Shown here piece after piece: positions 2,971-9,152 of a DNA stretch of 20,000 nt. Source of the stretch: an uncultured virus (IMG/VR IMGVR_UViG_3300032462_001943) (lineage: Duplodnaviria > Heunggongvirae > Uroviricota > Caudoviricetes). The notes beneath the pieces were generated by a model. It did no database searches. It worked only from the letters and a program-made list of their open reading frames with translations, and was not told where the DNA came from. Numbering within the stretch: the first letter of the stretch is position 1; each line of letters opens with the position of its first letter. The stretch lies in the IMG/VR virus record IMGVR_UViG_3300032462_001943, one strand, 5' to 3'. Both the position numbers and the translations under genes were made by a program.

Positions 2971-5900
2971 ATGTCACAAGAATTATTGTTCGATGCTTGT
3001 CAGAAAAGTCTTCAATTGCGGGGACTAGATTCTGATCCAAAATACAAGAAGCGGTTGAAGTGGGAAATAGAAGAAATTGCTGCTCGTAGCAAATCCAGTT
3101 ATTTCTGGAGCCTATACAACAACCGAACTCGTTATCCTCAAAATCAAAATAACCTGTTGATCTGTTGGCTTTTGGGGATCGCTCCCGATCACAACATTGA
3201 CCAAGAGCCAAAATGCGAATACGGTGAATATCCCGACATTGACGTGGATTATTTGCCTATTGTGCGTGACTATCTGAAAACAGTGTGGGCCAAAGATACT
3301 TTTGGTTCTGAGTATGTCTGCAATATCGGCAATTACACTACGTTCGGCATCAAGTCCGCTTTGATTGACATGGCTCGTGTCCACGGGGAAAGCCGAGAAG
3401 AGGTTCAGGCTCTTACCAAGAATCTCGACGCCAAGGACGATGAAGGCAAAGTTATGACATGGGACGCAGCGATGAAGCTGTATCCTGAGTTAAAGAAGTA
3501 TTGTGAATTGGACGACAATCACAAGCGTATTGCCGACGCAGCCAAACGATTGCTTCACCGCAATAGAGGCATGGGCGTTCACGCTGGCGGTTTGATTATT
3601 GCCAATGCTCCTTTGTCCGATCTGGTGCCTTTGGTCAAGAGAAAAGACAGTCCTCAAGCGTCTGCTTGGGTAGAAGGTCTTCACGGTCAGGACTTAGGCC
3701 CTATGGGTCTGGTCAAGTTTGACTTGTTGGTTATTGCTAATCTGCTTCAGATTGCTCGTTGTTGCGAGATGGTCAAGAAGCGTCATGGTCTGAATGGCAT
3801 TTGCAATAAGCCGGGCGAACCAGACTGGACTGATGTTGCTGCTTGGCGTGACGACCCTACGTCGTTGGCTATGGCGAATATCGGTGACTTGAAGTGTATT
3901 TTCCAGTTCGATTCAGAAGGTATGCGTGGACTCGTTCGTGCGGGTGGCGTGGATCGCTTTGAAGACTTGGTGGCATATACGGCATTGTTCCGTCCAGGTC
4001 CGCTCGGCATGAAGATGCAGGAGCGATACGTTGAGCGTAAGCGTGGTCGTGAAAAATACACGTTACATCCGTTGGTACATCCTATTCTTGATAAGACTTA
4101 TGGAGTTTTGACTTATCAAGAACAAATCATGCGTATTCTCAACGTGGTTGGCGAGATTCCGTTAAAGGATTGCGAGTTGGTTCGCAAGGCTATCAGCAAG
4201 AAAAAGGTTGAAGGCTTCATCAAATACAAAGAGATGTTCGTTCTCAACGGTCAGAAGAACCTGGGCTGTAATGAGACGGAAATCAATCACTTGTGGAATC
4301 AGATTGAAGCGTTTGCCGAATATGGTTTCAATCTAAGTATGACCATTGGAACATTAGTACCTGTAAGGGTTTGCGGCGAAACTAAGACCAAGCGGATCGA
4401 GGAATTCGTTCCTGGCGACGTAGTATTGTGCGTCAATCAGGCTGGCGACACGGTGGAGACGCAAGTGGTTGCCTTGCACGATCATGGCGTGTTGCCCGGA
4501 TACGAGGTCGCATTCGACGACGGATACAAAGTGACGTGTACTCTCGACCATAAATTTTTGACTCAAAAAGGTCAGAAATCTCTTCGGGAAATTATCAGAA
4601 CTAACTCTTCTATTTTGTGTGACCCAAAACACAAAATGGAGAGTGAAAATGCCGAAGAAAAATACGGATGGTTGGAAGGCTCGATGCGGGATGAGCTTGC
4701 CGTCACGGGCTGCGATGTGGACACACACGAAGGAGTGTGCGACTTGTCAAGAGAAGTCGTTTACGACGGGGGAATGGGAGGAATGGCTGCTGGACACGCT
4801 GAAATCCGTGACACCGGGCGTCTGGTGTGTCGGCGGATTGTACGGGTCATGCCCGTGGGTGAGCGACAGATGTACGATCTTGAAGTCGCCAATTCCACTC
4901 ACAACTTCCTCTTGCCCAATGGCGTTGTGACGAGTAACAGCCACGCTGTTGCTTACACCTATATTTCGGCGTGGCTGTTGTATCTGAAGGCTCATTTTCC
5001 ACATGAGTTTTATGTTTCGATGCTGAGTTGCGAAACTCTCAGTGAGAAGATCAAAGAATACAAGATGGAAGCCAAGATTCACGGTGTCGATATGAACCGC
5101 CTGGACATCAACAAGTCGGATGTAAACTTTGACCTTCAAGGCGATATTGTTTATTTCGGACTCAGCAACATCAAAGGTTTAGGTGAGGCTCCAGCCAAGC
5201 GGATTGTTGCTTCTCAACCATACAAGTCTTTTGAGGATTTTGTGACTCGGTTCGGCACAGACGCCAGTGTGTTGAAGCCCATCTTGGGGCTGAGATGTTT
5301 CCGTGATCGTGACCCTGTGTCTTTGTGGAAGTTCGCTGAACATTTCAAGGACTGCGCCAGTAAGATCGAAGAGAAGAAGAAACGTTATCATGTGGCAATG
5401 ATTAAGTACGATGCAGAGTTCAAGAAACTCTTGCCGTTGGAGATTCGCACGCTGTCTCAATTGGAAAATGGATTGGAAAATGGATTGGAAAACGTATTCG
5501 ACAGTGAAGGATGGAAACTTCAGTGCTACAAGGACGAACAGATTGAAGTCGATAAGGAAATTCAATGCAAAAAGGACTCTCCAGGTGCTACTGAGCGAAT
5601 AGTGGTCGAGGATATTGAGGTCGAAGGAACCGGATTGTATCTCCAACGTGAAATCATTCAGTATTATCATATCGGCAAAGTCAAAAAGACGTGGAATTTA
5701 TGGAAAGAATTGAGGAAGTTGTGGCAGCGTAGAAAAAAGAGCATCGAGCGATATAAGAATATCGAGCGAAGTAGTTTGCCTACGTTGCTCGATTTTGACG
5801 CCAATGCTTGGGATATTAACGAAGAATTGATGAAAGAATTCCGTGATTCTGTTGCTTGTGAAGAAAAGTATTACGGATTTGCTTGGATTCACGATCTGGA

Positions 5901-6387
5901 ACGTAGCCCGGATTACAAGGGAAATCTTACTTTTACTGATCTAAAGAACAGCATGGACGCAGTTTGTGGGCCGGTGGAGCTTCGTGTCAAGAAGGTGATT
6001 AAAACAGCAAGTAAAAAACGGAAAGAATTCATTTACTACCAAGTTTTAGCAGAAGATGTGACTGGACAGGAAAACAGGATCAACGTCTGGCCCGATGATT
6101 GGGAGTGGTGGCACAGGGAGTTCGGCTGGGAAGAAGTCGGTGAGAAATCGAAATTCACTGCCGGTAACTTACTTAGAGTACGGCTCCAGCCTCCAACTGG
6201 CGGCTTCAATACTTTTACTCTGGAAAGCAATCAGGTTGGAAAGTGGCGAAGTCAAAAGCGTTATCACGATAAAGCTGACGATCCACGAGTGATGGTTATG
6301 CAGAAGGGTCAGAAAGAAGAGGAAAAATTTCTGAGTGATGACGAGGCGATGGAGCAGTTCACCAACTGCATTATGGGACAACAATGA
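2971..6387 (+). CDS. dnaE: DNA polymerase III alpha subunit (family C), lacking the N-terminal PHP domain, intein-containing
   Basis: PDIDVD, GVHAGG, GLVKFDLL, IFQFDS, ALFRPGP, YGVLTYQEQIM, FAEYGFN/SHAVAY, LKAHFPHEF, FGLSNIKGLG (HhH), and a C-terminal OB-like region. Confidence 0.93.
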   Translation: MSQELLFDACQKSLQLRGLDSDPKYKKRLKWEIEEIAARSKSSYFWSLYNNRTRYPQNQNNLLICWLLGIAPDHNIDQEPKCEYGEYPDIDVDYLPIVRDYLKTVWAKDTFGSEYVCNIGNYTTFGIKSALIDMARVHGESREEVQALTKNLDAKDDEGKVMTWDAAMKLYPELKKYCELDDNHKRIADAAKRLLHRNRGMGVHAGGLIIANAPLSDLVPLVKRKDSPQASAWVEGLHGQDLGPMGLVKFDLLVIANLLQIARCCEMVKKRHGLNGICNKPGEPDWTDVAAWRDDPTSLAMANIGDLKCIFQFDSEGMRGLVRAGGVDRFEDLVAYTALFRPGPLGMKMQERYVERKRGREKYTLHPLVHPILDKTYGVLTYQEQIMRILNVVGEIPLKDCELVRKAISKKKVEGFIKYKEMFVLNGQKNLGCNETEINHLWNQIEAFAEYGFNLSMTIGTLVPVRVCGETKTKRIEEFVPGDVVLCVNQAGDTVETQVVALHDHGVLPGYEVAFDDGYKVTCTLDHKFLTQKGQKSLREIIRTNSSILCDPKHKMESENAEEKYGWLEGSMRDELAVTGCDVDTHEGVCDLSREVVYDGGMGGMAAGHAEIRDTGRLVCRRIVRVMPVGERQMYDLEVANSTHNFLLPNGVVTSNSHAVAYTYISAWLLYLKAHFPHEFYVSMLSCETLSEKIKEYKMEAKIHGVDMNRLDINKSDVNFDLQGDIVYFGLSNIKGLGEAPAKRIVASQPYKSFEDFVTRFGTDASVLKPILGLRCFRDRDPVSLWKFAEHFKDCASKIEEKKKRYHVAMIKYDAEFKKLLPLEIRTLSQLENGLENGLENVFDSEGWKLQCYKDEQIEVDKEIQCKKDSPGATERIVVEDIEVEGTGLYLQREIIQYYHIGKVKKTWNLWKELRKLWQRRKKSIERYKNIERSSLPTLLDFDANAWDINEELMKEFRDSVACEEKYYGFAWIHDLERSPDYKGNLTFTDLKNSMDAVCGPVELRVKKVIKTASKKRKEFIYYQVLAEDVTGQENRINVWPDDWEWWHREFGWEEVGEKSKFTAGNLLRVRLQPPTGGFNTFTLESNQVGKWRSQKRYHDKADDPRVMVMQKGQKEEEKFLSDDEAMEQFTNCIMGQQ
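4336..4938 (+). mobile_element. Mini-intein (201 aa, DnaE residues 456-656) inserted in the GFN(K/L)|SH motif
   Basis: It interrupts YGFNL|SHAVAY. It begins SMTIGTLV (block A with Ser1), has block B VTCTLDHKFLT and block F MYDLEV...HNFLLPNG, and ends VVTSN followed by +1 Ser. No in-frame LAGLIDADG motif. Confidence 0.9.
4649..4930 (+). CDS. Candidate ORF nested in the +1 frame inside the intein (93 aa; Cys/His Zn-binding N-terminus, possible truncated endonuclease)
   Basis: GGAG at 4638-4641, 7 nt before the ATG at 4649. Reads MPKKNTDGWKARCGMSLPSRAAMWTHTKECATCQEKSFTTGEWEEWLLDTLKS. The intein frame over the same bases is odd-looking (GGMGGMAAG). Confidence 0.45.
   Translation: MPKKNTDGWKARCGMSLPSRAAMWTHTKECATCQEKSFTTGEWEEWLLDTLKSVTPGVWCVGGLYGSCPWVSDRCTILKSPIPLTTSSCPMAL
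5461..5493 (+). repeat. In-frame 12-bp tandem repeat (TTGGAAAATGGA x about 2.7) encoding LENG-LENG-LEN within dnaE
   Basis: ttggaaaatgga ttggaaaatgga ttggaaaac read directly. Confidence 0.85.
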
Positions 6388-8014: not shown

Positions 8015-8596
8015 ATGAGCGACATGATGGACGACATCAACAAATACGCTGCGATATGGGATGCTGCCCAAGAAAAGGGAATTTTCAAGGATGCCCCCAA
8101 GCCACCGCAGCCTCGTAGCCAGGACGAAGAAGATTCGTTCTTTGGTGCGGATTTCTTTGGACAGAACCGATCTGCCGAATACGATATTGACGAGCCAATC
8201 AACGAAGTAGATTCAAAGTATTGGGCCAAAGTATCTCGCATGGCTGATCCTATTGGTAAATACGTTGATCCTTTGAATGAGGAATCTGTTCCTTCCAAAG
8301 AAAACACAAAGAAAGCTGCCGAGAAAATGGCGGGTTCGCACAATCCTCTATATCCAACCAGTGTTGGAAAAGACCAGGATATGAATGTGACCCAAAATTG
8401 GGGAACGGGCGGCAAAGAACATTTTCAGCTTGAAGATTTGAAGGTTCGTCTGGAAAAATTGGAAAGCAAGCTGAATGGCTTTGAAGCCAAAGGCGAATCT
8501 GGAAAAGGCACACAGGACAAAATCGACAGCCTCAAGAAGCAAATTGATGAATTAAGCGATTCTCTCAATGGCGACCGATTTAGTTCAGATGGCTAA
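8015..8596 (+). CDS. Hypothetical acidic protein with C-terminal coiled coil
   Basis: GGAGAGGA SD before the ATG at 8015; heptads LEDLKVRLEKLESKL and IDSLKKQIDELSDSL. Confidence 0.75.
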   Translation: MSDMMDDINKYAAIWDAAQEKGIFKDAPKPPQPRSQDEEDSFFGADFFGQNRSAEYDIDEPINEVDSKYWAKVSRMADPIGKYVDPLNEESVPSKENTKKAAEKMAGSHNPLYPTSVGKDQDMNVTQNWGTGGKEHFQLEDLKVRLEKLESKLNGFEAKGESGKGTQDKIDSLKKQIDELSDSLNGDRFSSDG

Positions 8597-9152
8597 TTTG
8601 ATGATCGCATATCAATTTACACCATTTGATGAATTGGTCTTCTTTAAGACAATTCTTCATCATATTTACATCTTTATGAACCCATTGGATATTTCCTGTT
8701 TTGTAAGGTATGTTCGAGTCAATTCTGTCTAATGATGCGGTGTTTTTTTCACTTGCTTTATTTTGGATGGCTTTTGGAGCAAATGTAATTTCAACGCCAC
8801 TGATTGCACACTTGCCTTTTTGCTTTTGGAATAAACGCCATGCTTCTTCTATGGTGATTTCAAAAGCAATTTTTCTTTTGCTTGCTGATCTTTTGGCCGT
8901 TGACCAAAATTGACCTGATATGCAACCATGTCCAGTCCACAATGGATGGCTTTTGTTTGTCATTTTATTTTTTAGACAACCACATGATTTTTTGTGACCA
9001 TTTTTAAGATACATCGCCAATGTGACAATTTCTTCCCCGCAATCACATGCACATTTACACACCGTTTCTTTGGATTTTCTGTTTATTTTTTCTGTCCAAG
9101 TTTGTGTTACGGTCAAAAGCCCGAACTTATCCCCAGCTTTGCATTTTTCCAT
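8580..9152 (-). CDS. Free-standing HNH-type homing endonuclease
   Basis: GDKFGLLTV, CKCACDCG, LKNGHKKSCGC (phage HNH-associated Zn domain), QKGKCAISG, SLDRIDSNIPYKTGNIQWVHKDVNMMK (beta-beta-alpha-Me core); antisense to its neighbours. Confidence 0.85.
   Translation of the reverse strand: MEKCKAGDKFGLLTVTQTWTEKINRKSKETVCKCACDCGEEIVTLAMYLKNGHKKSCGCLKNKMTNKSHPLWTGHGCISGQFWSTAKRSASKRKIAFEITIEEAWRLFQKQKGKCAISGVEITFAPKAIQNKASEKNTASLDRIDSNIPYKTGNIQWVHKDVNMMKNCLKEDQFIKWCKLICDHQISHLN

Follow-up and report, generated by a model that had tools for sequence, protein, structure and literature searches.

Homing endonucleases of inteins are, as a rule, domains that lie in frame between the splicing domains. 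Out-of-frame arrangements have also been described: a cyanobacterial dnaX intein carries a LAGLIDADG gene in the +2 frame (bioRxiv 10.64898/2026.09.14.751524), and inteins of actinobacteriophages contain frame-3 endonuclease VII-like genes or antisense genes of LAGLIDADG or VSR-like type (bioRxiv 10.1101/2025.01.02.630785). Both preprints cite Gorbalenya 1998, to which the dnaX preprint credits the layout (bioRxiv 10.64898/2026.09.14.751524; 10.1101/2025.01.02.630785). The earliest report of Vsr-like homing endonucleases placed them between the two parts of split inteins, those of DnaE among them (Dassa et al. 2009, PMC2677866), and a group I intron in recA is described as encoding I-Bth0305I, another homing endonuclease of Vsr-like type (PDB 3R3P; Taylor et al. 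2011, PMC3239194). In phage methylase genes, in-frame insertions known as the ShiLan domain are described as hiding an out-of-frame HNH endonuclease (PMC11855218). Here, a mini-intein is analyzed that interrupts a DnaE-like polymerase gene in a 20,000-nucleotide stretch of DNA (the window) from an uncultured virus of the class Caudoviricetes (IMG/VR record IMGVR_UViG_3300032462_001943) and that is overlapped by a 93-codon open reading frame (ORF) in the +1 frame. The layout is known in outline, and what the window holds is a decayed descendant of such an intein rather than a functional example: the +1 ORF is very probably the internally deleted stump of a nested homing endonuclease gene, that is, a very young pseudogene.

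The host gene (2971..6387, plus strand; 1138 aa) was assigned from the ORF list and Pfam as a DnaE-like DNA polymerase III alpha subunit, with matches to DNA_pol3_finger (3.8e-36), DNA_pol3_alpha (7.3e-26) and HHH_6 (9.1e-13); no N-terminal PHP-domain match was found in Pfam. Its 201-aa mini-intein (4336..4938, plus strand) was bounded with hidden Markov models (HMMs) of its relatives, and the initial annotation was right to call it an intein, since Pfam Intein_splicing matches 4345-4935 with 36.4 bits against a cut-off of 35.8. The insertion point lies between GFNL and SHAVAYT of the DnaE-like protein (GFN(L)|S...VVTSN|SH), and the splicing blocks are legible in the host frame as a Ser at position 1, block B (CTLDHKFLT), a terminal Asn (VVTSN) and a +1 extein Ser. 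The N-terminal splicing domain (4336..4638, plus strand) corresponds to positions 1-97 of the intN HMM (E 1.7e-41), and the C-terminal splicing domain with blocks F and G (4804..4938, plus strand), which is overlapped by the tail of the +1 ORF, was found with the intC HMM (E 5.5e-28). The window intein has all the invariant intein columns of a 61-sequence alignment of relatives, and these conserved family-invariant splicing residues suggest that it is probably splicing-competent.

Approximately 55 linker codons separate the two splicing domains, and it is here that the initial annotation had pointed to an odd host-frame peptide (...VVYDGGMGGMAAGH...) and to a second gene in another frame. Both are present as read. 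A Shine-Dalgarno-like GGAG (4638..4641, plus strand) stands 7 nt upstream of an ATG at 4649-4651, with the spacer agtgaaa at 4642-4648, and from this ATG the +1 ORF, classified as a relic on the basis of its translation, homology and contig junctions, runs for 93 codons to a TGA (4649..4930, plus strand); its offset from the host ORF 2971-6387 is (4649-2971) mod 3 = 1. The ORF-list entry for this frame opens earlier, at GTG 4619, and the TGA itself (4928..4930, plus strand) is embedded in the block G codons GTT GTG ACG. The peptide begins with MPKKNTDGWKARCG and contains the Cys/His pattern C13-x12-H26-x3-C30-x2-C33, so that the candidate Zn site proposed earlier has the expected Cys and His residues, with a C-x12-H spacing instead of the C-x13-H originally given. 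These residues belong to a first Zn-finger module of beta-beta-alpha type (GWKARCG-x11-H-x3-C-x2-C; 4670..4747, plus strand), delineated by alignment with the fingers of full-length relatives and by AlphaFold2 (AF2) modeling. The module is followed by FTTGEW (4760..4777, plus strand), the first six residues of a lost second finger, which match FTTGEW|TSRCG in the relative L083 as well as FTTG.W.ARCG in P0132 and P0142. Next comes EEWLLDTLKSV (4778..4810, plus strand), a remnant of the last Vsr-like nuclease helix that aligns with ...EWLEWLLKMLQSP of the full-length proteins and corresponds to helix 275-286 in the model of one of them. The helix in TTGEWEEWLLDTLKS, previously taken for the first helix of a nuclease, is instead the start of finger 2 fused to the last nuclease helix.

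A word-indexed search with the intein region yielded 160 intein-bearing proteins, mostly DnaE-like and falling into two size classes, and scans of viral contigs (three) and of metagenomes (one) supplied DNA of relatives. Searching all six frames with an HMM of the 250-360-aa proteins, in conjunction with the splicing-domain HMMs, delineated 49 unique inteins. Among these, 35 are of full length (349-436 aa); none of the 35 has a single stop in the host frame, and each holds an ORF of 270-380 codons that matches the endonuclease HMM at E<=1e-57. The nested ORF is offset by +1 in all contiguous full-length loci checked, comprising 12 distinct alleles plus further loci. Between the splicing domains of these long alleles, the host frame encodes a stretch of about 300 residues rich in R/S/G/Q/K/E, unlike a folded domain. 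A start of the nested gene was assigned in 43 of the 45 unique alleles with an HMM match, including all 35 contiguous ones, and a GGAG, GAGG or AGGA occurs a few bases upstream in 28 of the 43, typically before ATG CCN AAR (MPK...). Longer alleles, proposed in the initial annotation as the place to look, do encode a full +1 endonuclease behind a similarly placed start, mostly with a GGAG-type site.

The remaining inteins comprise 11 minis (136-223 aa), the window copy among them, and three split forms (L021, L106 and L111) whose host gene is divided into N and C parts lying in different frames, with a complete endonuclease gene between them. The latter resemble genuine split-intein ("fractured") members of this family and therefore indicate that contiguous and split layouts interconvert. 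Two further loci, L043 and L054, represent the classical fractured DnaE type with a Cys-1 split intein, and their free-standing Vsr-like gene matches the endonuclease HMM weakly. In L021 (576-1737), an ATG (MDTISY...) precedes the C-terminal intein part. No match to window positions 4300-5000 by blastn, or to the intein by tblastn, was found among phage GenBank records. P0059, which has the closest exteins (75%), was considered as a parent allele and rejected, as it carries a different intein. A frame-swap idea based on weak matches of the +1 peptide (E>=0.78) to the host-frame spacer of several long alleles was likewise dropped, given the +1 relation in all contiguous alleles.

The manner in which the nested gene was lost can be read at the junction. 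In alignment with its relatives, the window copy retains finger 1 and FTTGEW joined straight to EEWLLDTLKS of the last nuclease helix and to the tail; all columns of the nuclease core are gaps, and the +1 frame holds no complete endonuclease ORF. Judged against L083, about 230 codons are gone. Sampled words of 4300-5000 were all present in four public runs, and 29-54% of them in runs of three other studies; no RNA data set was found among the runs that contain these words. Contigs of runs X5-X8, each covering parts only, were compared with window positions 4200-5100. On the N side, contigs from three studies match the window at 4457-4781 (X5, 5 differences), 4548-4781 (X6, 2 differences) and 4664-4781 (X7, 2 differences) and are 98.5-99% identical to it up to the junction; beyond 4781, all three share the same letters, which are unlike those of the window. 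On the C side, an X5 contig fits from 4771 and has other letters before that point, while an X6 contig simply begins there. Hand-translated in the +1 frame, the N-side loose end reads ARCGQKFKTN, the body of finger 2, and the C-side loose end reads FASSTGAMKL and passes into EWEEWLL, where the nuclease domain ends. Both sides of the undeleted allele have in common the 11 nt at 4771..4781 (plus strand; GGAATGGGAGG), and therefore the deletion ran between two copies of an 11-nt direct repeat, probably by slippage or microhomology-mediated joining. Because near-identical contigs still carry the undeleted gene, the deletion must be recent. The same deleted allele occurs in G001, an 18-kb fragment classed as viral, with 1 mismatch in 3156 nt. 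The junction region at 4769-4789 reads GGGGAATGGGAGGAATGG, in which GGAATGG occurs twice, two bases apart; this repeat is responsible for EWEEW in the +1 frame and for GGMGGM in the host frame, the odd peptide that had first attracted attention.

Taken on the window alone, the excess of the +1 frame over chance is only moderate. Its stop-to-stop run at 4562-4927 (122 codons) is the longest in the gene and has a probability of about 0.008 at the +1 stop density of the extein (36 stops in 936 codons). Upon synonymous resampling of the 55 linker codons, the +1 frame was still open in 17.6% of 5000 trials, which, along with a tail dictated by the conserved intein blocks, would suit the explanation that the ORF is a chance shadow of the intein frame and was never a gene. 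An exhaustive phmmer search with the 93-aa peptide, however, returned 31 proteins at E<=1e-3 (12 at E<=1e-10), mostly of 250-360 aa, whose C-terminal 50 residues match window residues 40-92 and whose N-termini repeat the finger module of the window. Although the tail, as a mirror of conserved intein blocks, contributes part of these scores, the N-terminal finger matches independently: P0132 and P0142, N-terminal fragments that continue FTTG.W.ARCG into a second finger, align over residues 1-43/44, and in the HMM search the finger was matched as a domain of its own with an i-E (independent E-value) of 3.4e-5. Because the finger by itself matches finger modules of full-length proteins, and because a complete gene occupies the same frame in 35 of the 49 related inteins, the +1 ORF is almost certainly not a chance shadow; the near-identical contigs that hold the undeleted gene exactly at the junction speak against such a shadow as well.

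In the full-length alleles, both the host frame and the nested frame are under selection. When the nested gene was resampled synonymously at 12 full-length loci, 7.7-33.6 host-frame stops were expected and none was observed at any of the 12, a state that was reached in 0 of 2000 trials. Each of these genes has 60-127 codons beginning with AA, AG or GA, and none of them follows a codon that ends in T. The split forms serve as a natural control, with 30 (L021), 9 (L106) and 32 (L111) stops in the corresponding frame. Protein identity is higher in the nested frame than in the host frame in 16/16 allele pairs (non-independent, at 70-98.5% DNA identity; e.g., 0.80 versus 0.53), and the substitutions across these same non-independent pairs number 844, 554 and 1703 at positions 1, 2 and 3, respectively, of the nested-frame codons. 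These data bear on another explanation, namely that the endonuclease was once an in-frame domain of the intein and that the offset reflects a frameshift mutation or a sequencing or assembly error. The usual in-frame position of endonuclease domains among inteins would favor it, but the +1 offset in every contiguous full-length locus checked, a start assigned in 35/35 contiguous alleles, a strong Shine-Dalgarno-like motif in 28/43 alleles and a host frame kept stop-free by selection make it extremely unlikely. Furthermore, the host-frame translation of the stretch is R/S/G/Q-rich and poorly conserved, the second record, G001, has the same sequence as the window, and no nuclease fused in frame to the splicing domains was found among the 49 unique inteins.

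As predicted by modeling, the full-length nested protein has a Vsr-like catalytic fold, which is absent from the window copy. It consists of one to four Zn fingers (CHCC, beta-beta-alpha), a helical region and a Vsr-like nuclease. An AF2 model built from a 26-row alignment with L005 as the first row (mean predicted local distance difference test [pLDDT] 90.7) shows three beta-beta-alpha units, a helical region and an alpha/beta domain. When compared by VIA-align with 48,161 PDB representatives, residues 164-312 of the L005 model matched Escherichia coli Vsr best (1cw0_A; Z 10.3, root-mean-square deviation [rmsd] 4.3, 132 aligned), followed by the catalytic domain of I-Bth0305I (3r3p_B; Z 8.0, rmsd 3.0, 90/98 residues) and a putative endonuclease-like protein of Neisseria gonorrhoeae (3hrl_A; Z 7.7), with later rows at <=6.8. 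Near-invariant residues in the relatives are D206, E215, D217, H221 and D243 (VDF...EVDGxxHF...RD). By Foldseek, the N-terminal part of the L005 model matches C2H2 finger arrays (8ssq_A, E 1.6e-3), and the whole model gave nothing at E<=1e-3, with finger arrays and 1vsr as weak matches only. The ligand pattern of the fingers is C-x12-H-x3-C-x2-C, not C2H2, and Pfam zf-C2H2 is sub-threshold in one relative (16.9 versus 25.2 bits). A PDB profile search of the nested protein gave AbaSI at E 0.1 and no Vsr or I-Bth0305I match. Pfam has no family for the window +1 peptide and none above cut-off for 29 relatives of the +1 product, and no PHROGs family was found for a full-length nested protein or for the minus-strand ORFs over the region (4354-4728 and 4747-5139). 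The alignment with relatives, the model and the structure matches bear out the earlier proposal of a Zn finger combined with an internally deleted nuclease of Vsr/DUF559 type.

The region of the window stop is equivalent, in the alignment, to the end of most full-length nested relatives, and the tail PGVWCxGxLYxSxPW is kept in 26/26 aligned +1 products. The last ~45 residues of the nested protein (window 4804-4930; L005 3179-4123, model ~270-312) are encoded by the very bases of intein blocks F and G. The G, C, G, Y and W of this tail are invariant, its pLDDT is 75-95, and the Vsr alignment reaches residue 312. Either the tail has a role in the two proteins alike, or it is conserved in the +1 frame as a mere shadow of the intein.

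A different fate for the 93-aa product was also considered, in which it is a live small Zn-finger protein kept by selection, for instance as a DNA binder at the homing site that interferes with incoming endonucleases. Consistent with this, GGAG-N7-ATG is intact, the frame is open to the ancestral stop, C13, H26, C30 and C33 are retained, and finger module 1 is the sole part predicted as an autonomous fold (AF2 pLDDT 94-95 in 10-residue blocks). Past the finger, however, pLDDT falls from 78 to 47 at the C end (10-residue blocks), where the C-terminal 50 residues are low-confidence, orphaned parts of the deleted domain, and the product has no profile match to any small-protein family in Pfam or PHROGs. 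The other minis point the same way. A start and an ORF persist in 4/11 (the window, L001, L009 and L064), which might be counted in favor of a live protein, but each has different breakpoints and the four stumps have no common product: L064 is without a finger, L001 has only a finger fragment, and L009 has a premature stop in the tail. The other 7/11 have +1 stops or no start. From the sequences, this pattern appears to be that expected from gradual decay after independent deletions. Moreover, since the recent deletion has left too little time for stops to arise, the window would be expected to have an intact frame by default. A live small protein is therefore unlikely, and of the two alternatives left side by side in the initial annotation, a relic or a small live Zn protein, the relic is retained, given that only the finger is confidently modeled, the deletion is recent and other minis are decaying. 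Still less likely is the more specific idea that the single-finger peptide binds the site of the parent endonuclease and acts as a dominant-negative or "immunity" factor against the endonucleases of co-infecting relatives; if true, microhomology deletions would turn a selfish nuclease into a small DNA-binding protein kept by the phage.

The reading that the window ORF is the stump of a nested endonuclease gene can be set out as follows. In this intein family, the homing endonuclease would be a separate gene nested in the +1 frame rather than an in-frame domain. In complete alleles, the ribosome would read the polymerase frame through a stop-free spacer of about 300 codons, which would leave with the intein upon protein splicing, and a second start, formed by a GGAG-type site and an ATG just past the N-terminal splicing domain, would yield a 270-380-aa protein ending in the block G codons. 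The nested protein may, in analogy to other homing endonucleases of Vsr-like type, cut intein-free polymerase genes and so drive copying of the intein. In the window, deletion between copies of the 11-nt repeat would have removed everything from finger 2 on, including the helical region and the entire catalytic core. The polymerase survives only a deletion whose length is divisible by three, and such a deletion preserves the +1 frame as well; the old start therefore remained linked to the old stop, which is why the stump looks like a small gene. Invasion of the intein by a free-standing gene, as suggested in the initial annotation, is plausible.

Several points weigh against this reading. For the undeleted parent, there are only Logan contigs with 30-letter loose ends instead of an uninterrupted sequence. 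Finger 1 retains its four presumed Zn ligands, the start signals and the whole reading frame are likewise undamaged, and modeling suggests that a single finger can fold alone, so that translation of the 93-aa peptide is possible. Given the recent deletion, the open frame is uninformative on selection either way. The endonuclease HMM links the family only weakly to the endonucleases of fractured DnaE genes (L054, E 1.5e-4; L043, E 1.4e-3), and Pfam DUF559 was detected below cut-off (E 0.0072) in 1/29 relatives.

The same contigs carry signs of recent mobility. The C part of the intein (4771-4938) differs from X5 and X6 at one position (4828), in contrast to 23-25 differences (~14%) over the next 160 nt of extein (4939-5099), many of them third positions spaced by three. 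The boundary of identity is sharp, lying within 9 nt of the splice junction, and on the N side the likeness of the X5 contig to the window ends 45 nt upstream of the intein. A near-identical C part of the intein next to a diverged extein suggests recent homing with a short tract of co-conversion, and the pattern would fit a recent move of the intein from one polymerase gene to a diverged one. Two differences (4723 and 4828) fall within the part of the nested ORF that is retained; each is synonymous in +1 and changes the residue in the host frame, which at n = 2 is a hint only.

Variation is also seen at the splice sites of the family. The first intein residue is Ser in the window (4336) and in many relatives and Thr in others (GFNKT|LTEDT...), the residue preceding the intein may be K, R, A or L, and the penultimate intein residue is Ser rather than the usual His family-wide, including in the window. 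Close relatives of the intein (E 1e-33 to 1e-38) reside in other host proteins (P0081, P0097, P0103 and P0120). Among their precomputed Pfam labels are those of PIF1/AAA_30-type helicases, of a GGDEF protein and of a PI3/4-kinase-like protein; the element has moved from one host gene to another repeatedly. In L005, a 459-kb viral contig, an AAA-type ATPase gene (1-1482) upstream of the DnaE homolog is apparently interrupted by a canonical in-frame intein with a LAGLIDADG-like motif (LAGIIDTDG) and the end HN|S, so that one genome would hold both layouts side by side. Among the ORFs that neighbor the polymerase gene in the window are matches to phage families (ATPase, methyltransferases and peptide deformylase). 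The contig of the window measures 462,616 bases and the nearest record, G001, is classed as viral, so that the carrier is most probably an uncultured phage of very large size. A free-standing 190-aa gene of HNH/endonuclease VII-like type lies 2 kb downstream of the polymerase gene, at 8580-9152 on the minus strand (PHROG E 5.5e-18 to 6.4e-17).

The locus captures a rare stage of the homing cycle, in which a selfish endonuclease gene has just been gutted while its parent allele still circulates in other samples; parent allele and junction are both visible, and the latter is readable to the base. Odd low-complexity "linkers" in phage mini-inteins can be the read-through of nested endonuclease genes, live or dead. 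Such nested genes are without a Pfam or PHROG model and are picked up only sporadically by gene callers. As the sequences of the relatives indicate, the intein appears to tolerate a spacer of about 300 residues of arbitrary sequence, and the intact relatives, as modeled, may offer Zn-finger-plus-Vsr nucleases for engineering.

A same-strand, +1, Vsr-like and Zn-finger-bearing gene in contiguous DnaE inteins was not found in any published description, in a search that did not extend to the preprint supplements, which are possibly relevant. Of the systems introduced at the outset, the inteins of dnaX and of actinobacteriophages (bioRxiv 10.64898/2026.09.14.751524; 10.1101/2025.01.02.630785) share with the present family splicing domains in the host frame, a stop-free and poorly conserved spacer, an overlapping endonuclease ORF with its own ribosome-binding site, purifying selection on the nested frame and the origin of minis by endonuclease loss. 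Unlike those cases, the gene nested here is same-strand and +1, its product is Vsr-like and bears arrays of Zn fingers at the N terminus, it occurs in DnaE and other genes of uncultured large phages, and the window holds a deleted stump only. The ShiLan insertions (PMC11855218) likewise keep the host frame stop-free across an insert that hides a nuclease gene, but in that case there is no intein and the nuclease is of HNH type. With the catalytic domain of I-Bth0305I, the model of the full-length relative shares its fold (Z 8.0, rmsd 3.0, 90/98); however, I-Bth0305I is intron-encoded (PMC3239194), whereas the present endonuclease is nested in an intein and its catalytic domain is absent from the window copy. 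As in the fractured genes (Dassa 2009, PMC2677866), inteins that reside in DnaE and in further replication genes of phages from the environment are accompanied by a Vsr-like nuclease, the 3′ end of the endonuclease gene overlaps the start of the C-terminal intein part, and split relatives exist here as well (L021, L106 and L111, in addition to the classical L043 and L054), although the sequence similarity of fractured-gene endonucleases to the nested family is weak (E 1.5e-4 and 1.4e-3). In the fractured genes, the host gene consists of two ORFs whose products are trans-spliced (PMC2677866), whereas here a single host frame continues across the endonuclease gene and the intein is in one piece.

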